A stretch of DNA of 64,000 bases, taken from contig JBBRAE010000008.1 in the NCBI GenBank assembly GCA_038207085.1, forward strand, positions 63,743 to 127,742, in the 5' to 3' direction. The notes under the pieces are model-generated. The model was not told where the DNA came from and searched no databases. It was given only the letters and a program-made list of their open reading frames with translations. The position numbers and the translations under genes were made by a program. Shown here in pieces: positions 14,914 to 40,672 of this stretch. How positions within the stretch are numbered: position 1 is the stretch's first letter; every line of letters starts with the position of its first letter. Origin of the DNA: Armatimonadota bacterium (GTDB lineage Bacteria > Armatimonadota > UBA5829 > DTLH01).

Positions 14914-14925
14914 CCTGACCTCCAT

Positions 14926-25016: not shown

Positions 25017-25096
25017 CCCGCTTTATTCGTGAAGCGAATAAAGCTTTCGCTAACAGAGCATTATTCACGCTACTCGTGAATAATGCAGGTTAGCCC
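25013..25096 (+). repeat. Double-hairpin intergenic repeat, copy B (84 bp)
   Basis: TTAGCCC-GCTTTATTCG TGAAG CGAATAAAGC-linker-GCATTATTCACG CTACT CGTGAATAATGC-AGG-TTAGCCC; fills the gap between two convergent stop codons. Confidence 0.9.
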
Positions 25097-28000
25097 TATT
25101 CCATCCGAATGTCCGAGCTTGTGCATGGTTTCACGACCCGCACGACCGGGCCACCCATCGAGCGGATGCAGGAACTGATCCCCTTCACTGTGACATAGTT
25201 ACCGATGGCGTAGCTTCGGCCGTCGAAGGCGATTCGCACTCCGAGGGGGTAGGGGGTGCGCTGCGAGGTTCCGTCGTACAGCCCCGAGCCGTCATCGATG
25301 TAGAAATACGCGCCGGCTGGGTCGATGCAGGTGATCTTGCCCCAGACCCGCACGAGCAGGCCGAGGTTGTTCCTTCCTATGGACTGGTTCCATCTCCATA
25401 CTCCCACGGTGTCAACGCTCTCAGCAGCGTCCCACACGCCTTCCTGAAGGCCGAGTGGGCCGCCGCCAAGCGCGTAGTTTGTCATACCCAGTGGAGCCGG
25501 GACGGGTGCGACAGCGGCGAGGTCGGGCCACTGTCCTGTGGGCTCGATATAGCGCTCGCCTGTCGTGCTGTCGGTCTTGATCGCCCCCGAGAGGTTGATC
25601 ACCTGCCCAAGAGCGAACGCCTCCGACGTATCTATTCTCGTACCTCCCGATCTGTCGGCAAACTCCGCGTAGAGCATGGATGGGAACGCGGCAGTCACTA
25701 CGAGGTCCCCCACGCTCACACTCGTCCCATCAGAAAGCGATCGTTTGGCAGAAGAAAGCGCCAGCGGACGCTCGTAGGCGCCTATATCGGGAAGCGCCGT
25801 CCCGTCGCCGTCGCCGTCCTGCGGGCGGATCGACCCCGCAATGTCTTTGGCGGGCGCATCGGCAGGGGCAGCCGTGTCTACACAGGGAGAGGTGAACATC
25901 GGCTGATAATCCGCCGCCGCAAGAGCCGGGTCACTTGTCACGTCGCCGCTTGATGACAGCCCGGAGTAATCGTAAGCGCCGTTTGACCCGACGCAGTTGC
26001 TGCGGGCAGTCGGGCTGCCGGATATCTTGAACACACCAGGTGAGTTGTAGGCGACGACGTTGTTGGCAATGATGGGCGATGAGTTCATTATGTAGATTGC
26101 GCCACCGTCGGTTGAGGTGCTGTTGTAGACTATAGTGTTGTTTCTGATCGAAGGCGCGCCCGATGAACAGCGGATGCCTCCACCGGTTGAAGCGCTGTTG
26201 CTTGAGATGATATTGTTCACGATCACCGCGTTTGAGCCATAGCAATAGATGCCCCCGCCAGTCGTCGTCGCGCCGTTTCCAATGATGATGTTACCTGAGA
26301 TAGTCGGAGAGCTTGTATAAATATAGAAGCCACCGCCGTTTGTCGCAAGCCCGCCGGTAACGGTGAACCCATCGATTACGGTGGTCTGAGTCGCGCCGGA
26401 CTGAACGGTTATGGTCGACCCCCCGCTGCTTCCGTTTAGCGTCGTCTTGTTGACCCTGGCGTTGCGTTCTTCCCTGACTCCCTCGCGAGCCGCAAACCCT
26501 CCGTAAATCGCTGTGCCCGACTTTATCGTGATGCGCTCAGCGTAATCGCCAGAGGCGACCCATATTTCCTTGCCGCTTGTCGAGGCGCTTATCGCCTGGG
26601 TGATGGTCTGATAGGCGGTCGTCCAGCCCGACCCGTCGCGAACGGCGTTTTGGTTGGCTTTGTTGACGTAGATTACGTTTGTTGTAAGCCGAACTTCTAA
26701 CGTTGAGCTTATCACAGGGCTTGCATTGCCGGAGCTCGAAAACGCCTGGGTCTGGACGGTGTGTAAGCCTGCGCCGAGCGTCTGCGTTGTGAACGTAAAC
26801 GACTCGGAGTCCTCGTCAAATGCACCGTCCGCTGAAGCGGCATCACTCCACACCCCACCGTCGATACACCACTTCACAGCTGTGATTTTGTTGATAGTCA
26901 CGTCCGAGCGCAAGGGAGCGACACAGGGGATGTCGGTAGCGGTGCCGTAAATGGTAGGAGTCGAGTCGTCATTCGGTGTCGTGATGGTGCTGTACGTGCA
27001 GCCCACTGTGTTGTCGACGGTGTCGGGGAGCCCGTCGGAGTCGCTGTCCCTCCATCCTATCTGCGCCCAGGTATACTGACACAGGTAGTCGTCGTTGGAC
27101 TTCATCACGCAGGAAACACTCGCGGGGTTGTCCAGTTCGCAGTTGGTGTTTGGAATGTTAAGATAACCGGCATTTGCCGACGTGCAGCAGGCGTAACCTT
27201 GCTGGCAGTATTCGTCGTCTGCGAGGAAGATGTGACCGGTCTCGTGGCTTGTGACCTGGTTCATTCGCGATATTCCCCAGCCGTCGTTGTCGTAGGTCAT
27301 GATGACATAGGGACCACCCAGCCACGCGTAGCCGAACCTTCCAGTGGTGAACATGCCGTCGCTATCGTTCAGGCTGTCGACGACGATGATCGCAAAGCTC
27401 CAGTCCGTCGCCATAGTGCTTCTGAGGTTGTTAATATAGCTGCGAGCCCGGGCAAAAGGTGTGCCTGAGGAGTAACCCATGTTGGCGAAGATGTCTGACA
27501 CCCACGTGCTCTCATCTTCGTAACCCTGCATGGTGATCGGCTCGTACTGGGTTGGAACGCTGAACTTTTTGTCGTAATAGAACGTGAGATGCGCTGCGGC
27601 CCCGCCTTTGTTGACCCACCAGTTGAGCCCGGTCACGATCTGGCTGAAGACGGTGTCCTGCCGTGCCGCCGACCAGTTCTCACCGGACCCGTTTGACTCC
27701 GGGATGATGACGCCGACCGCCACTTTGCCGATCATAAACTCGCTGGTCTGAGTGGTTCCCGGGGCTGCCGCAGCCAGGACCGCTGATGTGCTCATATCAG
27801 GCTCCGGCGGGACAAAGGCGTCTCTGACAAGCGGCTGTCCGTCGGGCGCGTCCGTGGCAGTCTCAGGTTGCAGAAGTGTGTTCCAGATTTTGATGGCGGT
27901 TGTCGTGTCCGGGTCTGCTGAGGCGGGAATGGCCACGGTCACTCGGATGATTGCCCTGACTTCTGGGAGCTCGTTTGCACCGGCCTCCGCGCTCGTCGGA

Positions 28001-28245
28001 ACGCTTGCGATAATCGCGCCTCCTGGGAGCACGTGCTGGGCTTCAATTCCTAGCGCTCGAAGCCTTTCTATGGCGGCTTCGACCCCCGCGGCGTCTTTCT
28101 GATTAAGCAGAATGAGCGCCTGGTCCGGTGCTGCCGCGGCATGCGCCGGGGGCGTCGGAAATATCAGTGTAAGAACAACGAATAACAGACCCATCCATGT
28201 CTGAAGAGACGAATGTCCATCCTTGGAAGCATCTTTTCGCCGCAC
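25096..28245 (-). CDS. Secreted multidomain protein: zinc metallopeptidase + Ig-like + right-handed beta-helix + C-terminal OB-like tail
   Basis: Signal peptide (PAHA), HETGHIFLADDEY zinc motif, GGGIY/N-rich beta-helix repeats, DGDGDG..PDIGAYE, and tail with GLLVRVWGKIT..YIDDGSG. Confidence 0.75.
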   Translation of the reverse strand: MRRKDASKDGHSSLQTWMGLLFVVLTLIFPTPPAHAAAAPDQALILLNQKDAAGVEAAIERLRALGIEAQHVLPGGAIIASVPTSAEAGANELPEVRAIIRVTVAIPASADPDTTTAIKIWNTLLQPETATDAPDGQPLVRDAFVPPEPDMSTSAVLAAAAPGTTQTSEFMIGKVAVGVIIPESNGSGENWSAARQDTVFSQIVTGLNWWVNKGGAAAHLTFYYDKKFSVPTQYEPITMQGYEDESTWVSDIFANMGYSSGTPFARARSYINNLRSTMATDWSFAIIVVDSLNDSDGMFTTGRFGYAWLGGPYVIMTYDNDGWGISRMNQVTSHETGHIFLADDEYCQQGYACCTSANAGYLNIPNTNCELDNPASVSCVMKSNDDYLCQYTWAQIGWRDSDSDGLPDTVDNTVGCTYSTITTPNDDSTPTIYGTATDIPCVAPLRSDVTINKITAVKWCIDGGVWSDAASADGAFDEDSESFTFTTQTLGAGLHTVQTQAFSSSGNASPVISSTLEVRLTTNVIYVNKANQNAVRDGSGWTTAYQTITQAISASTSGKEIWVASGDYAERITIKSGTAIYGGFAAREGVREERNARVNKTTLNGSSGGSTITVQSGATQTTVIDGFTVTGGLATNGGGFYIYTSSPTISGNIIIGNGATTTGGGIYCYGSNAVIVNNIISSNSASTGGGIRCSSGAPSIRNNTIVYNSTSTDGGAIYIMNSSPIIANNVVAYNSPGVFKISGSPTARSNCVGSNGAYDYSGLSSSGDVTSDPALAAADYQPMFTSPCVDTAAPADAPAKDIAGSIRPQDGDGDGTALPDIGAYERPLALSSAKRSLSDGTSVSVGDLVVTAAFPSMLYAEFADRSGGTRIDTSEAFALGQVINLSGAIKTDSTTGERYIEPTGQWPDLAAVAPVPAPLGMTNYALGGGPLGLQEGVWDAAESVDTVGVWRWNQSIGRNNLGLLVRVWGKITCIDPAGAYFYIDDGSGLYDGTSQRTPYPLGVRIAFDGRSYAIGNYVTVKGISSCIRSMGGPVVRVVKPCTSSDIRME

Positions 28246-28349: not shown

Positions 28350-28665
28350 TCAGGCGGCGTCGGACTGAATCTCGATTACCGATTCCAAGAGGCTCGTGAA
28401 ACTGGAGTGGTTTGCGTCTGTGCTGCGAGCGGCGATGCTGGCGGCGAGCGCCCGCACGTCGCAGGCCGCCGGAGTCATAGGGGAAGATGCGACGAACGAT
28501 TGTCGCTTGCGCACGCAGGAGGCCGCTGGGCGTCGGCGCGTACACATCCGCCGTAGGTTAGTCGCTTGGACAGAAACTTGCCTGCGATGGAGTCGATGAT
28601 GCCAAAAACCTGCTCCGCCTGCTCCTGGCTCTGCGCCATATTGACGACTACCCTGATGTTGGCAA
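28350..28665 (-). pseudogene. FlhG/FleN/MinD-family ATPase remnant (C-terminal third, frameshifted)
   Basis: One frame reads ANIRVVVNMAQSQEQAEQVFGIIDSIAGKFLSKRLTYGGCVRAD; after a shift near 28530 it reads AASCVRKRQSFVASSPMTPAACDVRALAASI. No P-loop half is present. Confidence 0.65.
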
Positions 28666-28762
28666 TGGAGATTTGTCATAGACATAGTATTGCTACCTGT
28701 CCAAGAGTATTGTTCTATCAACTGTCGGGGAATTGCCGAGGATTTCGTGCCTGTAATCAATC

Positions 28763-28808: not shown

Positions 28809-30581
28809 TTATGCTTCTTGAGTCTCAGGCAACAGAGGCTCAATCTCAACCACGGGATACCTGCGCCGCTTGGTGTAGTGCGTGTGCAGGAGTTTGTGGG
28901 CGAGGTGGCTGTTTGGCTCGCCGAGGAACTCCTCGTAGAGCGCCTTGACGGCCGGATTCTCGTGGCTCTTGCGGATGACAAGCGCCTCGTCCTCGTCGTA
29001 GATGGCCTTCATGCGGGCCTCGCGGATCGCGTCGGTGGTTGGGATCGGCTGTCCGCCTCCACCAATACACCCGCCGGGGCAGCACATGATCTCGATGAAG
29101 TGATAGTCGGCGGTTCCGGCTGCGACCTTGTCCATAAGCTGGCGGGCGTTTGTAAGCCCGTTTGCAATCGCGACCTTCACGGGGATATCCCCGACCTGTA
29201 CCGTCGCCTCTTTCACGCCTATCAGCCCTCGAACGTCGGTGAAGTTGACGTTCTCAAGCGTGTCGCCCGTGACTACTTCATACACCGTCCGAAGCGCGGC
29301 TTCCATAACACCGCCGGTCGCTCCGAAGATCACTGCAGCGCCGGTCGATATGCCAAGCGGCTCGTCGAACTGGTTGTCGGGCAGGTTCGCGAAGTCGACG
29401 CCCATCTCGCGGATCATCTTCGCCGCCTCACGGGTCGTCAAGACCGCGTCGATATCAGGGATGCCGGGGTTCGCCGACATCTCCTCGCGCTCCGCCTCGA
29501 ACTTCTTCGCCGTACAGGGCATGATCGAGACCACATAGACGTCTTTGGGGTCGACGCCTTCTTTTTCGGCGTAGTAGGTCTTGGCGAGCGCCCCAAACAT
29601 CTGCTGCGGACTCTTGCACGTAGACAGATGCGGCAGTAGCTCGGGGTAGAAGTGCTCGATATACTTGATCCATCCCGGCGAGCAGGATGTGATCATCGGG
29701 AGCGTCCCGCCCTTCTTCAGGCGACCAAGAAGCTCCGTTCCTTCTTCAAGGATCGTCAGATCCGCGGTGAAGTCGGTGTCGAAGACCTTGGCAAAGCCCA
29801 TCTGGCGAAGCGCGTTCACCATCTTGCCGGTGACGCGGGTGCCCGCAGGCATGCCGAACTCCTCGCCGATCGCCACGCGGACGGCTGGCGCGGTCTGAAC
29901 TACAACGTGCTTGGTCGGGTCGGCGAGCGCCTTCCAGACGGCTTTGGTCGAGTCCTTCTCGTAAAGCGCGTTAACCGGGCAGACAGATACGCACTGCCCG
30001 CACATCACGCATGCGACATCGTTCAGGTCCTTCTTCATCGCCGGGACGACCGCCGTCTCGAATCCACGGTCGACCGGGAACAGCGCCCCGACGCCCTGCA
30101 CCTGCTGGCAGACCGTCACGCAGCGTCTGCACAGGATGCACTTGCTGCTGTCGCGGACGATGCTCGGGCTTGAGGTGTCCATGATCTGCTTGGGCATTGC
30201 TCCCGCGAAGCGCGATTCGGTGACACCGAGCTGCTTTGCCACCTCCTGAAGCTCGCAGTTAAGGCTGCGGCCGCAGAAGGTGCATTCCTGGCGGTGCGCT
30301 GAGAGCATCAGCTCGACGACAGTTCGCCGGGCCGATCTAACCCGCTGGGTGTTGGTCTTGACGGCCATTCCGTCGGTCGCGGGGTAGACGCATGAGGCCT
30401 GAAGCCCGCGCCCGCCTTCGATCTCAACGAGACAGACCCGGCAAGCGCCCATCGAGTGCACGCCGTCGAGGTAGCAGAGCGTCGGGATGTTGATCCCCGC
30501 GGCCTTTGCCGCCTGCAGCACCGTGCTTCCCGTCGGCACGCTCACCTGTTTTCCATCTATAGTAAGGGTAATGTTCTCCAT
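28809..30581 (-). CDS. hydA: [FeFe]-hydrogenase catalytic subunit (group A, multimeric)
   Basis: H-cluster motifs TSCSPGW, MPCTAKKFE and EIMCCPGGCIGGGGQP; N-terminal 2Fe-2S, HxxxCxxC and 2x[4Fe-4S] motifs; start ATG 30581. Confidence 0.96.
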   Translation of the reverse strand: MENITLTIDGKQVSVPTGSTVLQAAKAAGINIPTLCYLDGVHSMGACRVCLVEIEGGRGLQASCVYPATDGMAVKTNTQRVRSARRTVVELMLSAHRQECTFCGRSLNCELQEVAKQLGVTESRFAGAMPKQIMDTSSPSIVRDSSKCILCRRCVTVCQQVQGVGALFPVDRGFETAVVPAMKKDLNDVACVMCGQCVSVCPVNALYEKDSTKAVWKALADPTKHVVVQTAPAVRVAIGEEFGMPAGTRVTGKMVNALRQMGFAKVFDTDFTADLTILEEGTELLGRLKKGGTLPMITSCSPGWIKYIEHFYPELLPHLSTCKSPQQMFGALAKTYYAEKEGVDPKDVYVVSIMPCTAKKFEAEREEMSANPGIPDIDAVLTTREAAKMIREMGVDFANLPDNQFDEPLGISTGAAVIFGATGGVMEAALRTVYEVVTGDTLENVNFTDVRGLIGVKEATVQVGDIPVKVAIANGLTNARQLMDKVAAGTADYHFIEIMCCPGGCIGGGGQPIPTTDAIREARMKAIYDEDEALVIRKSHENPAVKALYEEFLGEPNSHLAHKLLHTHYTKRRRYPVVEIEPLLPETQEA

Positions 30582-30586
30582 GTATA

Positions 30587-33500
30587 TTACCTCGACTCCT
30601 GGTTGCAGGCGTCGCATCGCAGACACCTGTTAGCTTCCCTGATCGCGACATCTCGTTCGTAGCCTGTCTCGACTTCGGCGAAGCGGTTTCTCTTCTCGAC
30701 CGAGATACTCGGCATCTCGGCACGCGGTGTCTCGACGATGTCGTCAACGTCTTCGGCGGGCTGCGGGATCACGATGTCCTCGATATCCGAGGGAATCACC
30801 CCGTCGCCTCCAAAGAGCCTGTCGATACCCTGGGCAGCGGTGATACCCGCGCCAATCGCCTCGATAACGGTCGCAGGCCCCGTAACAACATCACCACCGG
30901 CGAATATGCCGTCGGCTGATGTCGCGCCGGTCTGCTTGTCGACCCATATCTTGCCGCGCTTGGTTTCGATGGTGTTGCCACCGAGGAAGTCTAGCTCCGG
31001 CTCTTGGCTGATCGCCGAGATGACGGTGTCGGCAGGGATGTCGATAACTTCGCCCTCGATCGCCTTCGGGCTGCGCCTTCCGCTCTTGTCGAACTCTTTT
31101 AGCTCAAGGAGCTGGCAGCGAAGCGACTTGGCCTTGCCGCCTTCGGCGACGACTTCGGTCGGAAGCACGAGGAACCGAACGACGACCCCTTCAAGCTCCG
31201 CCTCATGTATCTCGTAAGGGTCAGCGGGCATGTCTTCCCTGAGCCTTCTGTAGGCGATGGTGACGTGCTTTGCGCCGAGCCGAAGCGACGTTCTTGCCGC
31301 GTCGATTGCAGCGTTTCCGCCGCCGACTACGACGACGTTTTCGCCCACGGGGATGCTCTCTCCGAGTGCAGCATCGCGCAAGAATTTGATGGAATCATAT
31401 ACACCCTCGGACTCTTCTCCGGGGATTTCAAGGTTCCAGCTCTTGTCTGCGCCGGTTGCGACATAGACCGCGTCAAAGCCGCTTTTTATCGCATCCATTG
31501 TAATCTCTTTGCCGACCCGGGTGTTGCACTTGATCGTAACACCGAGCTCTTCGATGGCTCTTATCTCTTCGCGAAGCACGGCCTTCGGCAGGCGATACTC
31601 GGGGATACCCCAGACGAGCATTCCACCGGCTTCGGGGAGCGCCTCAAATACGGTCGGGGTGTGGCCCATCCGCGCGAGGTGATACGCGGCGGTGAGGCCC
31701 GATGGCCCGCCGCCGATGATCGCGACCTTCTTGCCGGACTTCGTGCCGCGCGTCTTAACCGGCGGCATCTTGGTGTCTTTCATCTCAACGTCGGCGACGT
31801 ATCGCTTCAGGTTTCTGATCGAAAGCGGCTCGTCTATCTGGCTTCTGCGGCACTTATCTTCACAAGGCGCATTGCAGACCCGACCGCAGACCGCGGGAAA
31901 CGGGTTGTGGTCGCGCACGATCCTGAGCGCATCGGAGAAGCGCCTGTTCGAGATAAGCGAGAGATACTTGGGCACACTCGTCCCTGCGGGGCAGGTGTGC
32001 GAGCAGGGTGCCTCAAACATCGCGTTGCAGACGCACGCCGGGCACTTCTTGTCCCTGATATGCGCTTCGTACTCGTGCCTGAAGTATCGCAGTGTCGAAA
32101 GCACGGGGTTCGGAGCAGTCTGACCGAGCCCGCAGAGCGCGGAGTCTTTGATCCGCTCGCCAAGGTCGATCAGAAGCTCGATATCGCCTTCTTTGCCATC
32201 GCCGTGTGCAATTCTGTCCAAGATTTCAAGCATTCTCTTGGTCCCGACGCGGCACGGTGTGCACTTTCCGCAGGACTCGTCCTGGATAAAGTCTAGGAAG
32301 AAGCGCGCAAGGTCGACCATGCACGTGTTCTCATCCATAACGATCAAGCCGCCCGAGCCCATCATCGCGCCAAGCTCGATCAGGCTGTCGTAGTCCATCG
32401 GCACGTTCAGGTGCTCTTTAGGGATGCACCCACCGGAGGGTCCACCGGCCTGCGCCGCTTTGAACTTGCGCCCGCCACGGATTCCGCCGCCGATGTCGTA
32501 GATGATCGTTCCAAGATCGGTCCCCATCGGCACTTCGACGAGCCCCGTGTTGCTGATCGCGCCCGCAAGCGCGAATATCTTGGTGCCCTTGCTCTTTTCG
32601 GTGCCGATTTTGGCGAACTCTTCCGCGCCCATGTTGATGATCATCGCCACGTTTGCGTAGGTTTCGACGTTGTTCAGGACGGTCGGGCTTTCCCAGAGTC
32701 CAGAGACTGCGGGGAACGGAGGTCTGGGCCTCGGCTCGCCGCGCTTGCCCTCTATCGAGGCCATAAGCGCCGTCTCTTCACCGCAGACAAACGCGCCTGC
32801 GCCCATCCTGATATCAAGCTCGAATTTGTGTCCCGTGCCAAGCACGTTGTCACCCAGGAGACCATACTCGCGGGCCTGATCGAGCGCTTGCGAAAGCCTC
32901 TCGATCGCCAACGGATACTCAGCGCGCACGTAGACGTGACCGATCGACGCTCCAATCGCGTACCCCGCGATCAGCATACCTTCGATGATTGCGTGCGGGT
33001 CGCCTTCAAGAAGACTTCTGTCCATAAACGCGCCAGGGTCACCTTCGTCAGCGTTGCAGAGCACGTATTTCTGGTCACCCTTGGACGCAGCCGCAAACTG
33101 CCACTTGCGTCCGGTCGGGAAGCCACCGCCGCCTCGACCTCTAAGGCCGCTTTTGATCATCTCGTGGATGACCTGCTCGGGGGTCATCTCTGTCAGGACC
33201 TTGCCAAGCGCGGAGTAGCCTTCGCGGGCGATATACTCGTCGATATTTGCGGGGTCGATCACACCGCAGTTTCTTAGCACCAGCTTCTTCTGAAGCTGGA
33301 AGAACGGCAGCTCATCGACGCTCCTGAACGACTGCCCGCCTTCCTCGTATGTATGGAGCAAATCCTCGACCACTCGGCCCTTCAGGAGATGCTCCTCGAC
33401 GATTCGGACGGCGTCTTCAGGCTTAAGCTTTGTGTAGAAAACTCCCTCAGGAGCTATCACCATAACAGGGCCGAGGTCGCATGTTCCGATACATCCGGTT

Positions 33501-33643
33501 TGGATGACCTTGATCTCGTCCTGCAGGTTATGTTTTGCTATCTCACTTGTCAGGGCATCGGCAACGGCATGGCATCCAGAGGAGACGCATCCCGCGCCGG
33601 CGCACACCAGCACATGAGACCTATACAGTTTCTCCATAGTCAA
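30587..33643 (-). CDS. hydB: HydB/NuoF-type FMN/NADH subunit fused to a GltD/NfnB-like FAD/NADPH domain
   Basis: N-terminal thioredoxin-like 2Fe-2S; GRGGGGFP, NADEGDPGAFMDR, GAGAFVCGEET and SCGKCTPCR; then APCSHTCP, CGRVCNAPCE, GGGPSGL, GGGNAAID..YRR, FAGGD and EANRCLRC. Confidence 0.9.
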   Translation of the reverse strand: MTMEKLYRSHVLVCAGAGCVSSGCHAVADALTSEIAKHNLQDEIKVIQTGCIGTCDLGPVMVIAPEGVFYTKLKPEDAVRIVEEHLLKGRVVEDLLHTYEEGGQSFRSVDELPFFQLQKKLVLRNCGVIDPANIDEYIAREGYSALGKVLTEMTPEQVIHEMIKSGLRGRGGGGFPTGRKWQFAAASKGDQKYVLCNADEGDPGAFMDRSLLEGDPHAIIEGMLIAGYAIGASIGHVYVRAEYPLAIERLSQALDQAREYGLLGDNVLGTGHKFELDIRMGAGAFVCGEETALMASIEGKRGEPRPRPPFPAVSGLWESPTVLNNVETYANVAMIINMGAEEFAKIGTEKSKGTKIFALAGAISNTGLVEVPMGTDLGTIIYDIGGGIRGGRKFKAAQAGGPSGGCIPKEHLNVPMDYDSLIELGAMMGSGGLIVMDENTCMVDLARFFLDFIQDESCGKCTPCRVGTKRMLEILDRIAHGDGKEGDIELLIDLGERIKDSALCGLGQTAPNPVLSTLRYFRHEYEAHIRDKKCPACVCNAMFEAPCSHTCPAGTSVPKYLSLISNRRFSDALRIVRDHNPFPAVCGRVCNAPCEDKCRRSQIDEPLSIRNLKRYVADVEMKDTKMPPVKTRGTKSGKKVAIIGGGPSGLTAAYHLARMGHTPTVFEALPEAGGMLVWGIPEYRLPKAVLREEIRAIEELGVTIKCNTRVGKEITMDAIKSGFDAVYVATGADKSWNLEIPGEESEGVYDSIKFLRDAALGESIPVGENVVVVGGGNAAIDAARTSLRLGAKHVTIAYRRLREDMPADPYEIHEAELEGVVVRFLVLPTEVVAEGGKAKSLRCQLLELKEFDKSGRRSPKAIEGEVIDIPADTVISAISQEPELDFLGGNTIETKRGKIWVDKQTGATSADGIFAGGDVVTGPATVIEAIGAGITAAQGIDRLFGGDGVIPSDIEDIVIPQPAEDVDDIVETPRAEMPSISVEKRNRFAEVETGYERDVAIREANRCLRCDACNQESR

Positions 33644-33683
33644 CTATGTCTCTCCCGTTCGTGAAGACTGCGCAGAGAACTCC

Positions 33684-34214
33684 CTACGCGCCGTTACCTT
33701 TATATTTGGCGACGATGCCAGGAATCTTGTCGAGCTTGACCCTTCGGTAGATATCGGCTCCCACCGTCACTACCGGTGCAAGACCGCAGGCGCCAACGCA
33801 GCGGTTGATTTCGAGCGAGAATTCTCTCTCCTCGGTCGTTCCGCCGACTTGGATCTTGAGCTCCTTTTGAAGCTTCTCAAGTATCTCTTTGCCGCCTCTG
33901 ACATAGCATGCGGTCCCGAGGCACACTCGTATCGTGTGTTTTCCTCGTGGAACCGTGTTGAAGAACGAGTAAAATGTCAGCACTCCGTGGACTTCGGAGA
34001 GCGGGACATCGAGTCCTTCAGCGACTTTAATCTGTACGGCCTCAGGCAGCCATCCAAAGAGCTCCTGCGCCTTGTGCAGCACCTGGATCAGAACACCCTT
34101 CTGTCCCCGGTGCGCCTCGATCATTTCATCGAGTTTGGCATACAGTTCGCGCTCAGTGGCCGCCGCATCTTGAGCAATCTGCTCACAATCACATACGTGC
34201 GTTTGCAACAGCAA
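33684..34214 (-). CDS. hydC: HydC/NuoE-type 2Fe-2S subunit
   Basis: LIQVLHKAQ, TFYSFF, CLGTAC and CVGACGLAP. Confidence 0.93.
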   Translation of the reverse strand: MLLQTHVCDCEQIAQDAAATERELYAKLDEMIEAHRGQKGVLIQVLHKAQELFGWLPEAVQIKVAEGLDVPLSEVHGVLTFYSFFNTVPRGKHTIRVCLGTACYVRGGKEILEKLQKELKIQVGGTTEEREFSLEINRCVGACGLAPVVTVGADIYRRVKLDKIPGIVAKYKGNGA

Positions 34215-34312
34215 TATACCTCCTGGTTATGGTTACAGGTGAGAATAAGTAGCTAGTAGCCAGTGGCTAGTCGCTAGTTGGAATACTGTTGGGCCGGATT
34301 TGCAATCCGGGC

Positions 34313-34396
34313 CCTCTAACCCGCATTATTCACGAGAAGCGTGAATGATGCTCTCTTAGCAAGAGCTTTATTCGCTTCACGAATAAAGCGGGCTAA
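34313..34396 (-). repeat. Double-hairpin intergenic repeat, copy C
   Basis: Reverse-orientation copy GCATTATTCACGAGAAGCGTGAATGATGC...GCTTTATTCGCTTCACGAATAAAGCGGGCTAA; overlaps the TAG stop at 34393. Confidence 0.9.
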
Positions 34397-34755
34397 GATG
34401 TCGCGACCACCCAGTCGCCGATCATCTGGCCGCCGAGCACGTGGCGTTCCACGATGGCTCGGGCTCTTTCGGGCGTGACATAGCCGTAGGTCACGGCTGG
34501 TCCGCCTGCTGTGATGACATCTACCGTCGGTTCTTTTTCACAAAGCCCCTTGCAGCCGGTCTGCGTGACGGTGATGTTGGATATTCCGCGGTTTGCGAGC
34601 TCATCGAGGATCGCGGACATGACTTCTCGAGCTCCCGATGCGATGCCGCAGGTTCCCATCGCGACGACGACCTTGCAAGTCTGTTCGCCATCGCGAACCA
34701 TCATAGCCTGCAGCGCTTCCTCACGGATTTTCTTCAGGTCCTCCAGTGTCTTCAT
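34393..34755 (-). CDS. Thioredoxin-like [2Fe-2S] ferredoxin subunit (HydD/HndB-like)
   Basis: MGTCGIASGA and TGCKGLCEKEP; lies inside the hyd operon. Confidence 0.88.
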   Translation of the reverse strand: MKTLEDLKKIREEALQAMMVRDGEQTCKVVVAMGTCGIASGAREVMSAILDELANRGISNITVTQTGCKGLCEKEPTVDVITAGGPAVTYGYVTPERARAIVERHVLGGQMIGDWVVATS

Positions 34756-34807: not shown

Positions 34808-35356
34808 CTAGGCGATTGCTCCAATATTTGCGATACTTTCGGTAAGATACTCGCGCATCCAGTGGCGAACTTCGGGTGTCTCAATGGGCACCTCGCCTAG
34901 CTCTCGCCTGACGTCGCTTGTATCAAGATTTGCGCTCTTACCATTCACGGTCTGCTCATACTTGAACGATATCGCCGGGTTTGCGACGACAATATCAACC
35001 ACGGTTGTTGCGATATCTCCAAACGGCGCGCGGTCGATGTGTGAGAGCTTGAACTTTACATCAAGCCTCGTCCCATCGCCGACCTTGGACGATATCCGAA
35101 GCGCGCCTTCGCAGGCTTCCGCAGCAGCCGTGAACATTGGAATCCCGAGCCCGACCTTGCGGGTCGTTCGGGTCGTCCAAAACGGGTTCATCGCGTTCTT
35201 GATCGTCTCCGGGCTCATCCCGCGTCCGTTATCGACAATCGAGATCGAAAGCAGATCCCGAACCGTGTCGGCATCCACAATAATCTCAACCCGACCGGCC
35301 CCTGCCGCAATAGAGTTCTGAACAATATCCAATATATGAAGAGAAATCTCACGCAT
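34808..35356 (-). CDS. Stand-alone HATPase (histidine kinase-like ATPase) of hyd operons
   Basis: MREISLHILDIVQNS, DNGRGM, PFWTTRTTRKVGLG and SHIDRAPFGD; start trimmed to ATG 35356. Confidence 0.88.
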   Translation of the reverse strand: MREISLHILDIVQNSIAAGAGRVEIIVDADTVRDLLSISIVDNGRGMSPETIKNAMNPFWTTRTTRKVGLGIPMFTAAAEACEGALRISSKVGDGTRLDVKFKLSHIDRAPFGDIATTVVDIVVANPAISFKYEQTVNGKSANLDTSDVRRELGEVPIETPEVRHWMREYLTESIANIGAIA

Positions 35357-35400
35357 ATTGTTAGCCACCGTTGTTTCGGGGACCCTGTCCCTGAAACGAT

Positions 35401-35435
35401 GATCGTGGGGGATATTCATCCCGCACGAAACAGAA
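35401..35435. repeat. Short palindromic repeat family 2
   Basis: GATCGTGGGGGATATTCATCCCGCACGAAACAGAA; near-identical to 53295-53350. Confidence 0.7.
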
Positions 35436-35570
35436 CAACAAGGACTTAAGTCCGGGAAATCGACTGTAGTCGACTCATCGGGAGTAAACTCCCTTGTTCT
35501 TCTTTGCGTGTGCGATACATATCGCACACGATCACCGCATACAAATCTATCAATACCAACCATTCGCATC

Positions 35571-36320
35571 TCAAACGAACAACTCGCCGACGCATCTTCC
35601 GTCCCGCGCTTCACAAGCCATCCGAATCTCGACGACTGATCTGTGCTCAATATAGAACGTCGTCCTACATATCCCAATGTCAGAGAGTATATGCGCGTCC
35701 GACGAGGTTATCACCGAAAGACTCGCAAGATCGGGATACTTCACCCGCGCCTCGTCGAGCTTCGTCCGCCGAGACACTTCGACCGCAGAAAACTTCGGCT
35801 CCTCCGGCATAAACCCGAGCACTCCAAAGAGCCCGTATCCGGGGCGATCGACATGCGCGGGGATCGCAAACCCCGAGCGCTCACTTACGGCGGCGGCGAT
35901 ATCTTCGATTGTCAAAGAAGTCGGCGCAAGGAGCAATCGCTCGTTGTACCGCACAAACTCCGCATCAGATGTGACCACCATCTGATCGCCGAACTTGCCC
36001 GCCGGGTTCACAAGCGGCGGAAGCGCGCTGTAGACCAACTCCTGCATCGACTCGGCGTCCGCGGCGTCGTCAAACAGGCAGATGATGTGCACGCCTTCGA
36101 CCGATTCGCACTCCATACCAGGCAAAACTTTGAGCGCACTAGACCTTGCGGCTTGAATCACCGCCCGAGTGTTTTCAGCCGAGTTGTGATCGGTGATCGC
36201 GATCATATCGAGCCCTTCGGCGATCGACTTTTCGACGATCAGCCGGGGGATCATCTCGATCTCAGCGCACGGCGACAAAAGCGTATGAATATGCAGGTCC
36301 GCGATGCATTTAACCGGCAT
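35571..36320 (-). CDS. PHP-domain protein (hyd operon associated)
   Basis: DLHIHTLLSPCA, AITDHNS, PAHVDR and SSDAH; start ATG 36320. Confidence 0.9.
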   Translation of the reverse strand: MPVKCIADLHIHTLLSPCAEIEMIPRLIVEKSIAEGLDMIAITDHNSAENTRAVIQAARSSALKVLPGMECESVEGVHIICLFDDAADAESMQELVYSALPPLVNPAGKFGDQMVVTSDAEFVRYNERLLLAPTSLTIEDIAAAVSERSGFAIPAHVDRPGYGLFGVLGFMPEEPKFSAVEVSRRTKLDEARVKYPDLASLSVITSSDAHILSDIGICRTTFYIEHRSVVEIRMACEARDGRCVGELFV

Positions 36321-36654
36321 TTGTCCGGACGCCCATGCTCCAGAGCTTGCCGACGACATCAAACGCAGACTGGTTCGTCGAGTAGAGCGGCACGTTTTCC
36401 TCCCGGGCCTTGTCTATGGTGTCCTGGTCGGGTTCGAGCCCACCCGCGACGATTACACCAGCAAGCCCAAGAAGAGATGCCACTGCTACTACGTTCATAT
36501 GCTTCTGGTTCGTCACCAGGATAAAGCCGGGCTTGGCTTTGGCGAGCACGTCAGAGAGCAGGTCGGAGCAGTATCCGCCGACCACCTGAGCTGAGCCGAG
36601 CTCGTCATTTAGAGGCTTCAGGCTTAGTTCCATCGTCAGTTGTTGAAGTATCAT
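36310..36654 (-). CDS. DRTGG-domain protein
   Basis: GGYCSDLLSDVLA and VTNQKHMNVVAVA. Confidence 0.85.
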   Translation of the reverse strand: MILQQLTMELSLKPLNDELGSAQVVGGYCSDLLSDVLAKAKPGFILVTNQKHMNVVAVASLLGLAGVIVAGGLEPDQDTIDKAREENVPLYSTNQSAFDVVGKLWSMGVRTNAG

Positions 36655-38002
36655 TTTGCTCCGATCCCTTTCTTATCGCTCCCATTGATCCGGGAACCGC
36701 AAGCGCCGCCTGCATCAGTTCCTCAGCCAAGAGCTGGACGCGCTCTCTAAGCTTAAACACGCAGTCAGTCTCAGCCGCAAGCCCGCGCACCACGTCCTCG
36801 GCGAGCGCCCGGCAGTTGGGCGCGCCACACGAGCCGCAGTCGAGCCCCGGCAGGTTCTCGACCATCCGCTCGATAGCCGCGAGCTTCTTGATAGCCTGGC
36901 TCATGTCCTCATCGAGCTTCAGAGTAGGCCTGGGGAATATCGCCTGGTCAAAGTCATAAATCGGCTTGCTTAGGCCGTCTCTGATGAGTCGTTCTTCTTC
37001 ATGAGTCGGCAGCTGGGCGGTCTCATCTGAGGCGAGTATTCTAATGCGCCTGCGCGTGATAAACGAGTTTTCGACCGTCAGCACCCCGCCGACGCACCCG
37101 CCGATGCATGCCTGCGCCTCGATATACTGCATGTCATGGAGCTTGCCGCGCTCGACGTTCTCCAAAATATCAATTACGTTGTGGATGCCATCGACCGCGA
37201 GGTGCTTTTCGACCGCGATCGACTGGTTCTCACCACCCGCGCGCGCCCAACCGATACCCGGCCTCGTCCCGCAGCGAAGCGGCTGCTTGTCGGGGAGATT
37301 CCCTCGCGAGAGCGCTTCCTGGATCATTGGGAAGACTGCCGAAATCGGGATCGCGCCGTCGAGGCACCGGTCGGCAAACCCTGCGGGCTCGTTTACGGCG
37401 CTTACTTTTGCCGGGCAGGGTGTTATAAAGAATACTCCGATATCGGCCTCATCAATTCCCATTTTGACGGAAATCTCTTCGCGGGCAAGCCTTGCGGCGA
37501 TTCTCATAGGGGAGGCGACGGGGGCGATGTGCTCGATCAGGTTGGGAAACCGAACTTGTATAAGTCTGACAACGGCGGGGCAAGCGGACGATATCACTGG
37601 ACGAATCTTTGCGCGCATAATCTGGTGGTGAAGTTTTTCAGCGGCGAGGTGAGCGGCAAAGGCGACGTCGAGGACATCGTCAAACCCGAGGGTAAAGAGC
37701 GCGGCGAGGACTTTCCGTGGGTCGATACCTTCCCAAAACTGCCCGTAAAGCGCGGGGGCGGGGACGGCGACCGTATGCTTGAACCGCTCCATAGATGCGA
37801 GCTGGTCAGCGAGGACGTCTTTGGCATTGTTCGGGCACGTGCGCACGCACTCGCCACAGTCGATGCAACGCTCCTCAAGGATGTTGGCTTTGCCGTCCCT
37901 GACTCGTATCGCCTCAGTAGGGCATCGTTTGATGCAGCTTACGCAGCCTTTACACTTGCTCTCGATCAAATGAACCGAGTGGAAGTAGCGCATAGTCATC
38001 AC
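36605..38002 (-). CDS. [FeFe]-hydrogenase-like Fe-S protein with non-canonical H-cluster motifs (putative sensory)
   Basis: N-terminal 2x[4Fe-4S]; SSACPA, TPCPAK and EAQACIGGCVGG; C-terminal LPGLDCGSCGAPNC. Confidence 0.85.
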   Translation of the reverse strand: MMTMRYFHSVHLIESKCKGCVSCIKRCPTEAIRVRDGKANILEERCIDCGECVRTCPNNAKDVLADQLASMERFKHTVAVPAPALYGQFWEGIDPRKVLAALFTLGFDDVLDVAFAAHLAAEKLHHQIMRAKIRPVISSACPAVVRLIQVRFPNLIEHIAPVASPMRIAARLAREEISVKMGIDEADIGVFFITPCPAKVSAVNEPAGFADRCLDGAIPISAVFPMIQEALSRGNLPDKQPLRCGTRPGIGWARAGGENQSIAVEKHLAVDGIHNVIDILENVERGKLHDMQYIEAQACIGGCVGGVLTVENSFITRRRIRILASDETAQLPTHEEERLIRDGLSKPIYDFDQAIFPRPTLKLDEDMSQAIKKLAAIERMVENLPGLDCGSCGAPNCRALAEDVVRGLAAETDCVFKLRERVQLLAEELMQAALAVPGSMGAIRKGSEQNDTSTTDDGTKPEASK

Positions 38003-38442
38003 CGGTTGAAGAATACCAGTTTCACGGTCGTGCCAGTGCCTGGCACGGAGTCGATCTCAAGCTCGTCGGCACATTCGACCATGTTCGGCAGCCCCATTCC
38101 GGCTCCAAACCCCATCTCTCGCACCTCGTCGCTTGCGGTGGAGAATCCGGGTTTCATAGCAAGGTCGATGTCCGGGATACCCGGCCCTTGGTCTTCAATT
38201 TGAAGTATAACACAATCGGGCCCGGCGTCCAGTGTGATTTTGCCGAGGTGCGCGTGGATAACCACATTCATCTCAGCTTCGTAGCTTGCGACGGCTATCC
38301 GCCGCACAGTGTTGGGGTCGACGCCGATCTGCTGCAGGATGTGTTTTATCCTGCTAGACGCGCCGCCCGCGCCGTTGAAGTCACGTCCCGCCACCTCAAA
38401 AGAGTGCTTGAGTCTGCCATCGGAGGGATCGAGACTTGCCAT
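37999..38442 (-). CDS. Anti-sigma-type Ser/Thr kinase (RsbT/RsbW-like)
   Basis: YEAEMNVVIHA, DQGPGIPD and GFGAGMGLPN. Confidence 0.9.
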   Translation of the reverse strand: MASLDPSDGRLKHSFEVAGRDFNGAGGASSRIKHILQQIGVDPNTVRRIAVASYEAEMNVVIHAHLGKITLDAGPDCVILQIEDQGPGIPDIDLAMKPGFSTASDEVREMGFGAGMGLPNMVECADELEIDSVPGTGTTVKLVFFNR

Positions 38443-38904
38443 TTAGGACTCTCCGTCTGTAAGCGCGCCGGAAGCTCGCTCAAGGTCTTTGCGTCTGATC
38501 TTCGCGCGCTTTTTTGGGGTGTCGGTCGTGCAACCTAGCAGCCCGAGCGAGTAAAGTCTGCCGCAGCTTTCGTAAAGAGGGTAGGGGGAAAGTAAAATTG
38601 GAAGGTTGCGCGATTTCGCGAGTTCGATCGTCGCTTCGTCGGGTCGCTTGTCGCGGACAAAGACGATCGCTTTCAAGTCGAGCATCTCAGCGGTCCTTAC
38701 GACCTGCTGATTTGTGAGGCCCGTGAGTAGCACCGACCCCGGCTGAGTGAACGCGAGCACGTCACTCATCAGGTCGCAGCCGCAGGCCGTCCTGATCTCA
38801 TCCTGGAGCTTGTCTTCGCCGCCGATGACTTCAGCTTCAAGAGTGTTGCAGACTTCTTGGAGTGTAATTTTGCGTTCGGTTTTCTTGCCGACGTTTTCGT
38901 TCAT
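38443..38904 (-). CDS. DRTGG-domain protein (first gene of the hyd operon)
   Basis: CDLMSDVLAF and LLTGLTNQQVVRTAEM. Confidence 0.85.
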   Translation of the reverse strand: MNENVGKKTERKITLQEVCNTLEAEVIGGEDKLQDEIRTACGCDLMSDVLAFTQPGSVLLTGLTNQQVVRTAEMLDLKAIVFVRDKRPDEATIELAKSRNLPILLSPYPLYESCGRLYSLGLLGCTTDTPKKRAKIRRKDLERASGALTDGES

Positions 38905-39559: not shown

Positions 39560-40672
39560 TTGAACACACGCCCATTTGGCAACAGAAGCGGCTTTAACGT
39601 GCCGCAGGTAAGTATTGGAGCTATGCGGTTCCCGGAAGACACTGACCAGGCGGTCGCCCTGATTCGCCATGCCATAGACAGCGGCACGGTCTACATCGAC
39701 ACCAGCCGCGGGTATGGAGACTCCGAGATCAAGCTCGGCAAAGCGCTGAAAGACGGTTACCGCGAGAAGGTTATCCTCTCAACCAAATGGTCGCCGTGGA
39801 TCACCAAGATCGAGGAGACCGATGACGCATCAGCCGACTGTATGCGTAAGCGCATCGAAGAGTCGATGACCCGCCTCGACGTAGACTACCTGGATTTCTA
39901 TCAGGTATGGAACATCGACTCCCGTGAGCACTACGACCAGGCAGTGGCAAAGGGCGGTATGGTCGACGGCATCCGCAAAGCGATGGACGACGGAATAGTC
40001 GGCCACACAGGGTTCACGACTCACGACTCTGTGGCGAACCTTCTCACCTACATCGATGAAGCCGAGTGGTGTGAGATCATTCTTTTTACCTATAACATGC
40101 TGAACAACACCTATGCCCCCGCTATCGATGCGGCCCACCGTAAGGGTATCGGTACGGTCATTATGAACCCCGTCGGCGGCGGAATGCTCACCAAGCCAAG
40201 CGCGGTCCTTGCCGAACTGGCCCAAGCCGCCGGATCCACATCGCTTCCTGACCTTGCCATTCGCTATATTCTTTCGAACCCCAGCGTCGACACGATCATC
40301 TCCGGCTTTTCCAAGCCCTCCGACGTCACCGAAACCCTCGCTTCATCGGGCTCACGGCTGTTCTCAGAGGAAATGATGCTGATGCTGCGAGATAAGCTCG
40401 ACGGCATATTGCATGGCTGCCAGGCTTTCTGCACCGGCTGCAAATACTGCCTGCCGTGCCCTCAGGGCATCGACATTCCAGGCGTTATGTACGGCGTCGG
40501 CCAGGACAGGTTCTGGGGTTTCGAGGAACACGCGCGGACTCACTTCGCTCAGATGAACACCCCAGGCCCCGAAGCCTGCACCGCCTGCGGCGCATGTGAA
40601 GAAAAGTGCACCCAGCACCTGAAGATCAGCGAAGAGATGGCTCACGCAGTCGCAAGGTTCGGCGCGAAGTAG
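39560..40672 (+). CDS. Aldo/keto reductase with C-terminal 4Fe-4S dicluster
   Basis: IGAMRFP, YIDTSRGY, LSTK, CTGCKYCLPCP and CTACGACEEKC; GGAG SD before a TTG start. Confidence 0.92.
   Translation: MNTRPFGNRSGFNVPQVSIGAMRFPEDTDQAVALIRHAIDSGTVYIDTSRGYGDSEIKLGKALKDGYREKVILSTKWSPWITKIEETDDASADCMRKRIEESMTRLDVDYLDFYQVWNIDSREHYDQAVAKGGMVDGIRKAMDDGIVGHTGFTTHDSVANLLTYIDEAEWCEIILFTYNMLNNTYAPAIDAAHRKGIGTVIMNPVGGGMLTKPSAVLAELAQAAGSTSLPDLAIRYILSNPSVDTIISGFSKPSDVTETLASSGSRLFSEEMMLMLRDKLDGILHGCQAFCTGCKYCLPCPQGIDIPGVMYGVGQDRFWGFEEHARTHFAQMNTPGPEACTACGACEEKCTQHLKISEEMAHAVARFGAK

Follow-up and report, generated by a model that had tools for sequence, protein, structure and literature searches.

What becomes of the ferredoxin branch of a bifurcating-type [FeFe]-hydrogenase when the domain that should serve it is exchanged for a second flavin module? 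The question is raised by a locus at positions 28809-34755 of a 64,000-nucleotide stretch of Armatimonadota DNA (contig JBBRAE010000008.1; hereafter the window). Four genes lie here on the minus strand in the order hydD-hydC-hydB-hydA, and the hydB product joins a NuoF-like flavoprotein of the bifurcating type to a GltD-like module that is predicted to bind NADPH and flavin adenine dinucleotide (FAD). An initial annotation, made from the sequence alone, had proposed that this arrangement ties H2 turnover to both NADH and NADPH. We find that interpretation to be partly supported: the anatomical half holds in the comparisons described below, while the functional half, the coupling of H2 to both nucleotides, is one that we infer by analogy with related enzymes.

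Motif and profile matches confirm, as far as sequence can, that the locus is a genuine four-gene [FeFe]-hydrogenase operon of the HydABC(D)/BfuABC(D) type, and the joint presence of HydA, HydC and a HydD-like protein that had been reported in the initial annotation was recovered. The HydA open reading frame (ORF; 28809-30626, minus strand) probably starts at the ATG of codon 16, position 30581, which would give a gene at 28809..30581; the alignment to its closest solved relative, A. woodii HydA (7q4v_A, 722.8 bits), begins at query residue 16. Pfam matches to Fe_hyd_lg_C (E 6e-104), Fe_hyd_SSU, Fer2_4 and NADH-G_4Fe-4S_3 outline an N-terminal [2Fe-2S] domain, a His-ligated [4Fe-4S] site, a 2x[4Fe-4S] domain and the H-cluster domain, and the NCBIfam model for NADH-dependent group A6 [FeFe]-hydrogenases, NF040763, gives the protein 938 bits (cut-off 765). 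All three H-cluster motifs are present, as TSCSPGW, MPCTAKKFE and EIMCCPGGC. The first of these, in the region of residue 313, reads TSCCPGW in C. pasteurianum CpI (Iron hydrogenase 1); the Ser-containing form is common to the HydA studied here and the solved A. woodii HydA, and Ser is described as common at that position in four of five BfuABC sub-types (PMC11406978). HydC (33684..34214, minus strand) is a NuoE-like thioredoxin-fold [2Fe-2S] subunit that would carry the C1 cluster (PF01257, E 2.6e-48). The HydD/BfuD-like gene (34393..34755, minus strand) encodes a small thioredoxin-like [2Fe-2S] protein of 120 residues whose profile matches are weak, at 20.7 bits to PF01257, under the 24.8-bit cut-off, and about 40 bits to an NCBIfam 2Fe-2S ferredoxin model, far under the cut-off.

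The fused HydB (30587..33643, minus strand) measures 1018 residues when counted from a TTG codon; because an identical database entry (P0005) is 1016 residues long, translation probably begins at the ATG of codon 3. Pfam divides the protein into 2Fe-2S_thioredx (residues 8-84), Complex1_51K (164-333), SLBB (357-405), NADH_4Fe-4S (444-528), Fer4_20 (532-623) and Pyr_redox_2 (638-933), and NCBIfam places a NuoF family match at residues 130-529 and GltD-like matches (PRK12771/PRK12814) at about 498-1014. Every motif quoted for this subunit in the initial annotation was located, with ADEGDPGAF at 198 and GAGAFVCGEET at 281 in a complete NuoF/HydB half, followed by GGGPSG at 644 in the FAD site, and GGGNAA at 774 and YRR at 798 in the second Rossmann domain.

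Residue conservation was assessed over 58 fusions, reaching down to 38% identity, and over a smaller set of 26. The thioredoxin-like [2Fe-2S] domain at residues 8-97 (33353..33622; PF01257 at 8-84) carries the B5 site, with the predicted ligands C14, C19, C51 and C55 invariant in the 26 fusions and at least 90% conserved in the 58. Residues 130-530 (32054..33256) comprise the flavin mononucleotide (FMN)/NADH Rossmann-like, SLBB and four-helix [4Fe-4S] B1 domains (PF01512, PF10531, PF10589), and three of the four B1 ligands (C458, C461 and C504) are invariant over the 58 fusions, with C464 at least 90% conserved. There follows a short segment, residues 528-546 (32006..32062), which holds the Zn/B2-site residues H528, C534 and C539, all invariant over the same set and joined at the site by C441 (at least 90% conserved). 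These four positions correspond to the B2 ligands C438/H525/C531/C536 of the A. mobile NiFe-HydB (PMC9304861), to which residues 6-544 align gaplessly with an offset of +3 (7t2r_B); the fifth B2 position, which is C476 in A. mobile and Thr in FeFe enzymes, is Ala479 here. Solved FeFe enzymes hold Zn at the B2 site (PMC11829005), and the B2-site His is described as missing in HydB homologues that do not bifurcate (PMC9304861).

Where the likeness to a standard HydB ends is sharply defined. Residues 8-547 align to A. woodii HydB (7q4v_B) at 809 bits with a single small gap (Foldseek identity 63%), and the alignment stops at residue 547, exactly before the 2x[4Fe-4S] B3/B4 domain; Pfam gives no match to a Fer4-type dicluster or classical 2x[4Fe-4S] ferredoxin domain anywhere in the 1018 residues. 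The complex shares HydC and the B5, FMN, B1 and Zn/B2 residues with the HydABC enzymes of A. woodii, T. kivui and T. maritima (7q4v, 8a6t, 7p5h), but lacks their ferredoxin-reducing B3/B4 domain and has instead a module of about 470 residues with FeS, FAD and NAD(P)H sites. Set against the BfuB features given by Schut et al. 2022 (PMC9304861), FMN/B1, B2/Zn and B5 are present, and Fer4_20 is found where the B3/B4 ferredoxin domain would be. On the sequence evidence, the bifurcating-type features are kept (B5 [2Fe-2S], FMN, B1 and the Zn/B2 site) and only the B3/B4 ferredoxin domain is replaced.

This architecture is already in print. Zheng & Huang (mSystems 2024, PMC11406978) describe a sub-type I BfuB in which DPD_II (2x[4Fe-4S]) and an FAD/NAD(P)-binding domain at the C-terminus stand in for B3/B4. 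Its gene accompanies those for BfuA and BfuC, and in some cases BfuD, in many phyla, and the authors state that no biochemistry exists for it. The locus described here has the same domain replacement (PF14691 at 532-623, PF07992 at 638-933) and the same gene set, with no architectural difference from that description, and by architecture and gene content it is of the sub-type I kind. The caveat in the initial annotation that surveys might already show such fusions was well placed (PMC5037454, PMC11406978, PMC11216029). The locus adds one more member to a widespread kind of enzyme that is biochemically uncharacterised; what is added here is the evidence that separates Stn-type from NfnB-type modules, the seven-residue tether and single-body model, a read-level check of the junction, and an inventory of the hydrogenases that reside in the same genome.

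The C-terminal module

Residues 545-1012 of HydB were compared with solved relatives, and the strongest matches are to the NADPH-oxidising domains of the NfnABC/StnABC transhydrogenases: 446 bits to C. saccharolyticus NfnA (residues 102-568), 393 bits to S. ovata StnC (102-566) and 367 bits to T. sibiricus NfnA (105-502). The canonical bifurcating subunits score lower, at 314 bits for T. maritima NfnB (46-461; 4ylf_B) and 289 bits for the P. furiosus NfnI large subunit (50-468; 5jca), and the glutamate synthase small chain lower still, at about 205 bits (56-466). The replacement of the ferredoxin domain by a second flavin module, as first proposed in the initial annotation, is borne out in that the module is complete, and its comparison with Stn was apt.

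The module opens with a Fer4_20 domain (PF14691) at residues 547-623 (31775..32005), which has two predicted [4Fe-4S] sites. Mapping by alignment from NfnA predicts C551, C590, C594 and K613 as ligands of the FAD-proximal cluster, and C547, C586, C598 and one Cys of the C-terminal tail as ligands of the distal one; in C. saccharolyticus NfnA, the corresponding proximal cluster (A7) is ligated by C108/C147/C151/K170 (PMC11829005). Next come an FAD Rossmann domain (GGGPSG at 644, E667, R684) and an NAD(P)H Rossmann domain (GGGNAA at 774, YRR at 798-800), together spanning residues 638-946 (30806..31732; PF07992). The alignment to the NADPH-using NfnA, StnC and NfnB retains GGGN.A..DAAR and YRR, and the YRR motif would bind the 2'-phosphate of NADPH. 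The FAD motif, R684 (equivalent to StnC R239) and GGGNAA are conserved among the fusions, R800 never varies over the set of 58, in which Y798 and R799 each show at least 90% conservation. A C-terminal tail at residues 974-1013 (30605..30724) then carries an RCLRC motif, whose C1007 and C1010 are invariant in both sets. C537 and C1013 were also considered as cluster ligands and rejected, as neither is conserved. Overall, the complete module, with its eight Cys and K613, GxGxxG, GGGNAA and YRR, is conserved over the 58 fusions.

The position of the tail is informative. It aligns both to the N-terminus of T. maritima NfnB (residues 15-43) and to the C-terminal residues 546-568 of C. saccharolyticus NfnA, and in NfnA and StnC, too, the Cys-bearing segment comes after the Rossmann domains. 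Read from these alignments, the tail is a circular permutation that supplies the cluster Cys which canonical NfnB carries N-terminally. The column of K613 points the same way: it holds Glu in T. maritima NfnB, and Lys in both StnC (K170) and NfnA (K170), and among the fusions the Lys never varies in the set of 26 and shows at least 90% conservation over the 58. Because of this Lys ligand and the permuted Cys tail, we place the module, by sequence, with the Stn/NfnA type and not with the bifurcating NfnB type.

Against this background, we can weigh the suggestion of Zheng & Huang that the extra FAD of sub-type I enzymes bifurcates as in NfnB, giving two bifurcation centres alongside one another, the other being the FMN-FeS centre (PMC11406978). 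The module does have the same fold, FAD site, NADPH Rossmann domain with YRR and pair of [4Fe-4S] clusters as the NfnAB/NfnSL enzymes of T. maritima and P. furiosus, which fits that postulate. Yet NfnB has Glu at the K613 position, a Cys helix at its N-terminus and a PyrK-like partner, where the fused HydB has Lys and a C-terminal tail, and neither the ORF list nor Pfam gives a PyrK-like gene in the operon; the genome encodes its NfnAB elsewhere, on contig C10. A single FeS path is predicted to leave the FAD. In StnC, moreover, K170 is essential, and the FAD is reported to be a non-bifurcating flavin (PMC10482914). The Lys ligand and the Stn-type affinity both disfavour a second bifurcating FAD, and we regard two centres as very improbable.

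The position of the module within its complex is different from that in its nearest relatives. The NfnABC/StnABC enzymes (9bov C. saccharolyticus, 8oh5 S. ovata, 9n5u T. sibiricus) have the same permuted GltD-like module with a Lys-ligated proximal [4Fe-4S] cluster, likewise joined to a BfuBC-type core, but there it lies in BfuA, between [2Fe-2S] and NuoG/Fdh-like domains, and feeds the mid-potential entry, whereas here it forms the C-terminus of BfuB. Those enzymes lack an H-cluster, and ferredoxin is served by B3/B4 retained in their BfuB; in the present complex, BfuA is a genuine hydrogenase.

Reality, geometry and spread of the fusion

Could separate hydB and gltD-like genes have been wrongly joined by assembly or annotation? 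The initial annotation had itself named an assembly artefact as one of the findings that would overturn its reading. The HydB frame is open throughout, with no stops, and a 7686-base Logan contig of run X1, produced by a different assembler, covers positions 30400-32749 with 0 differences and bridges the junction at about 32006-32062; run X1 may be the source sample, so that this is a second assembly and not an independent sample, which is the sole caveat. Fused homologues are also abundant elsewhere. A search of 5.8 billion clustered proteins returned at least 7999 scored candidates, and the best 120, which we considered, are all fusions of 824-1033 residues with 60-100% identity to the query, 119 of them covering at least 97% of it. 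Near-full-length fused frames occur in at least 32 of 201 same-phylum genomes, own genome included, and 13 fusions are found among the 80 best loci from contigs representing one genome per species. Open frame, bridging contig and homologues together rule the artefact out, and we give it a negligible probability.

The geometry of the junction is constrained. Only seven residues separate C539, the last Zn/B2 ligand, from C547, the first predicted ligand of the distal cluster. An AlphaFold2 (AF2) model of the fused HydB, built with the 58-sequence alignment, has a mean predicted local distance difference test score (pLDDT) of 88.8 and a predicted template modelling score (pTM) of 0.86, with pLDDT values of 90 over the junction (residues 531-550) and 92 over the Cys tail (residues 1001-1010). 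This model speaks for one rigid body, and not for two beads on a string. Because of the seven-residue tether and the confidently modelled junction, the clusters of the module must, if the model is right, sit beside the Zn/B2 site, in the place that B3/B4 normally occupy. Foldseek found no chain in the Protein Data Bank (PDB) that covers more than about half of the AF2 model (TMq at most 0.51), and no PDB sequence was found to match both halves of HydB, so the 2026 PDB copy holds no solved structure of the fused subunit.

Named sources of the best protein homologues are mostly Armatimonadota metagenome-assembled genomes; Anoxybacter fermentans, which encodes three of the five BfuABC sub-types (PMC11406978), has a fusion that is 60% identical to the one studied here. 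Counts for the 201 genomes derive from the best 150 of 363 matches and are lower bounds: besides the 32 near-full-length frames, at least 7 further genomes have a partial match across the junction, giving a total of at least 39 of 201. Four of the 32 frames contain one in-frame stop (G097:C1, G018:C3, G001:C338 and G032:C163, with TAA, TAA, TAG and TGA, respectively); the stops may reflect pseudogenes or sequencing errors, and the TGA might instead be a recoded codon. The 13 fusion records from the one-genome-per-species search carry the names Armatimonadota, Nitrospiraceae, Smithella, Atribacteria, Actinomycetota, Deltaproteobacteria (two records), Halanaerobiales, Bacteroidales, Hyphomicrobiales, Clostridiales, Firmicutes and Prolixibacteraceae, so that the fusion appears in records named for at least eight lineages besides Armatimonadota.

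When homologues were clustered at 50%, both halves were found in 18 of the 150 best representatives. A FastTree phylogeny of the NuoF core was calculated from 121 rows drawn from these 150, together with 6 paralogues from the own genome and 5 close fusions, after rows covering less than 90% of the core had been dropped. The fusions do not form one clade in this tree: 8 label changes are needed, at least 5 of them forced by starred branches, although with its long branches and truncated rows the tree is too weak for counting origins. Among the homologues there is also a family of about 650 residues (P0200, P0208, P0214, P0219, P0229, P0230, P0266 and P0269) in which NADH_4Fe-4S is followed by Fer4_20 and Pyr_redox_2, according to Pfam runs on two members, giving the same junction as in the fusion without the FMN domain.

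The gene set around the fusion was compared in 20 related loci from the same phylum. In all 20, the fused hydB is preceded by hydC and followed by a hydA homologue; the hydA match covers the H-cluster domain in 18, and a HydD homologue is present in 16. The two remaining hydA matches are partial: in L055 (G058:C6), the gene after the fused hydB matches HydA residues 17-221 only, which is the FeS part without the H-cluster domain, and in L046 (G187:C1) it matches residues 5-393 only. Because of these partial matches, some fused BfuB proteins may serve partners other than an intact hydrogenase. Immediately downstream of the fused operon, five loci, L038-L042 (G085, G060, G034, G144 and G097), carry a further hydC-hydB-hydA set of the standard kind, and the HydB of this tandem set matches the N-terminal half only, at 48-50% identity.

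Where the electrons may go

In a standard HydB, the C-terminal B3/B4 clusters carry the low-potential branch out to ferredoxin, as described for solved Bfu enzymes (PMC11829005, PMC10482914). Because a Stn-type module is predicted to sit beside the Zn/B2 site in the fused HydB, we expect FAD and NADP(H) to be the terminus of that branch here. On balance, we lean towards a complex that interconverts 2 H2 + NAD+ + NADP+ and NADH + NADPH + 2 H+, with NADP(H) in the place of ferredoxin. HydA would turn over H2 and pass electrons along its FeS chain to B1 and FMN in the HydB/HydC core, which would consist of cluster B1, FMN and cluster C1. NAD(H) would react at the FMN, while the mobile C1 cluster of HydC would pass the other electrons to whatever adjoins the Zn/B2 site, from where they would run through the distal [4Fe-4S] cluster and the Lys-ligated [4Fe-4S] cluster to FAD and NADP(H). 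The FAD site would prefer NADP(H) over NAD(H). This route for the electrons, the choice of nucleotide at each flavin and any obligatory coupling are all deduced from the solved relatives.

The energetics of such an exchange can be estimated. Physiological potentials are given as -280 mV for NADH, -380 mV for NADPH and -414 mV for H2 (PMC9304861, Table 1), from which we calculate that the NADH/NADPH pair averages -330 mV and would be at equilibrium with about 1.4e-3 bar H2, compared to a ceiling of about 3e-5 bar with NADH alone. The latter value falls in the range of 2.2-40.2 Pa reported for H2 with a non-bifurcating enzyme (PMC7311640). In the H2-evolving direction, NADPH would help to pull NADH oxidation. 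If NADP(H) does replace ferredoxin, the H2 pressure that allows NADH re-oxidation would, by this calculation, be up about 50-fold over that with NADH alone, and H2 metabolism would be tied directly to both pyridine-nucleotide pools without ferredoxin. The same reading, if true, would make the fused enzyme a convenient test bed for the still-debated flavin-plus-two-cluster (B1-FMN-C1) mechanism of Bfu enzymes.

A stronger form of the proposal is possible but doubtful, namely an obligately coupled hydrogenase that confurcates NADH and NADPH (or bifurcates from H2), which would be the first Bfu-type enzyme with a pyridine nucleotide on the gated low-potential branch. Were obligate coupling true, the B1-FMN-C1 switch would be open to study with two soluble, optically trackable substrates.

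Several points weigh against placing NADP(H) on this branch in the manner proposed. The preference for NADP(H) at the FAD is deduced from homology and from the presumed role of the YRR motif. Different fusions, which do not group together in the NuoF-core tree, may not all work alike. Ferredoxin could still dock on the distal cluster of the module, as has been proposed for an archaeal HydB (PMC11216029). Finally, thermodynamics does not demand gating of the bifurcation type, because at 1 bar H2 is able to reduce NAD+ and NADP+ with no coupling between them.

The last of these leads to a simpler enzyme, an uncoupled dual-nucleotide hydrogenase in which FMN and FAD work independently and either NAD(H) or NADP(H) suffices, with no confurcation or bifurcation. 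Such an enzyme would need no coupling, since both nucleotide couples have potentials above that of H2 at 1 bar; the StnC-type FAD is described as a plain electron-input flavin (PMC10482914), and HydB enzymes without B3/B4 are known that are non-bifurcating and NADH-dependent (PMC7311640, PMC11406978). Such are the HydAB(C) enzymes of Syntrophus aciditrophicus and Syntrophomonas wolfei, whose HydB lacks B3/B4, as does the fused HydB, and which link H2 to a pyridine nucleotide without ferredoxin (PMC7311640). Those HydB proteins, however, are described as being without B2-B5 (PMC9304861), whereas the fused HydB keeps B5 and the Zn/B2 residues and gains a second flavin site. The His/Cys Zn/B2 site, B5 and a HydC with C1 are hallmarks of a gated bifurcating core, and non-bifurcating homologues are without them (PMC9304861). 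We consider uncoupled operation unlikely.

The proposal for the archaeal enzyme gives rise to another alternative, in which ferredoxin is still the low-potential partner, docking at the distal [4Fe-4S] cluster, and FAD with NADP(H) forms an extra branch that amounts to a built-in Nfn-like function. The homologous subunit of NfnSL serves ferredoxin through its two [4Fe-4S] clusters. The archaeal protein, from a group F hybrid [FeFe]/[NiFe] hydrogenase, has a HydB with a glutamate-synthase domain that was modelled on 7E5Z_B and 7MFM_I (Cell 2024, PMC11216029). By its description, to which our likening of the two is limited, it is a NuoF-like diaphorase with a glutamate-synthase-type domain like the fused HydB, but its partner HydA is fused to a [NiFe] small subunit, and ferredoxin, not NADP(H), is suggested to bind at the added domain (PMC11216029). 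That study tested neither a ferredoxin-binding surface nor NADP, a word that does not appear in it. The full NADPH pocket is conserved in the 58 fusions, and this speaks for the nucleotide as a genuine substrate. We judge a retained ferredoxin partner to be improbable, and NADP(H) as its replacement is the reading that we carry forward.

Classification and genomic setting

How such enzymes are filed matters for the interpretation of genomes. The HydDB rule assigns to group A2 those enzymes whose partner has a GltD-type but not a NuoF domain, and to A3 all in which NuoF is present (PMC5037454). Because the partner described here has both GltD-type and NuoF domains, the filing is A3 and not A2, and by that rule fusions are silently filed under A3 as ordinary bifurcating enzymes. 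The gene that the rule considers is the one that follows hydA, whereas here hydB precedes it. The family is large and found in many anaerobic phyla, and many metabolic reconstructions probably assign electron flow wrongly where these genes are annotated as 'NuoF' or as ordinary bifurcating hydrogenases of group A3. The main text of PMC9304861 makes no mention of GltD, NfnB or a fusion; IPR017896 (4Fe-4S ferredoxin-type) is among three InterPro signatures in the legend of its BfuB tree (Figure 2). Term look-ups in PMC7311640, PMC8924675 and PMC6085437 found no mention of the fusion. No study of the biochemistry or structure of the fused enzyme turned up in a literature search that covered articles without their supplements; the initial annotation, likewise, knew of no biochemical characterisation of such a fusion with a hydrogenase.

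The genome that contains the locus (3.35 Mb in 83 contigs, 100% complete) encodes 7 NuoF-like proteins and gives 8 Fe_hyd_lg_C matches. Contigs C2 and C3 each have a HydB with two CxxCxxCxxxC tail motifs, of the B3/B4 type, adjoining a HydA; C4 has a 552-residue HydB without B3/B4 motifs, also adjoining a HydA; C23 has another NuoF-like gene of the B3/B4 type, with no HydA match on the contig; and C29 has a complex-I-like NuoF. The NfnAB on C10 is canonical. On C19, a 786-residue NuoE-NuoF fusion lies beside a 518-residue GltD-like protein with [2Fe-2S], Fer4_20 and FAD domains, forming a compact Nfn-Bfu-like pair. Because standard HydB, a HydB without B3/B4, NfnAB and the Nfn-Bfu-like pair are all present, the fused enzyme is an additional, non-redundant type among the several hydrogenases and transhydrogenases of one cell, and not their replacement.

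Upstream of the operon, Pfam outlines a regulatory cluster on the minus strand (34808..38904), made up of a HATPase_c protein (34808-35677), a PHP-domain protein (35571-36362), a sensory-type [FeFe]-hydrogenase-like protein (36605-38002), a HATPase (37999-38442) and a DRTGG protein (38443-38904). These genes occur in the same order in the closest relatives, L036-L042 (7 of the 20 loci), and most of the other loci have a variant of this cluster. Downstream of hydA, also on the minus strand, lie an ORF of 136 residues with no Pfam match (28350-28760) and one of 1049 residues with a marginal DUF1565 match (25096-28245; E 2.7e-4); tblastn gave no match above 60 bits to either in any of the 20 related loci.

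Further out in the window, two adjacent ORFs of about 1120 residues each (11560-14925 and 14926-18303, minus strand) have GH123_N as their sole Pfam match and are probably paralogous glycoside-hydrolase-like proteins. On the plus strand, a 604-residue protein with PD-(D/E)XK nuclease (PDDEXK_13) and REase-ARP domains is encoded at 41068-42882, and near it, at 39560-40672, an aldo/keto reductase with a C-terminal 4Fe-4S dicluster match.

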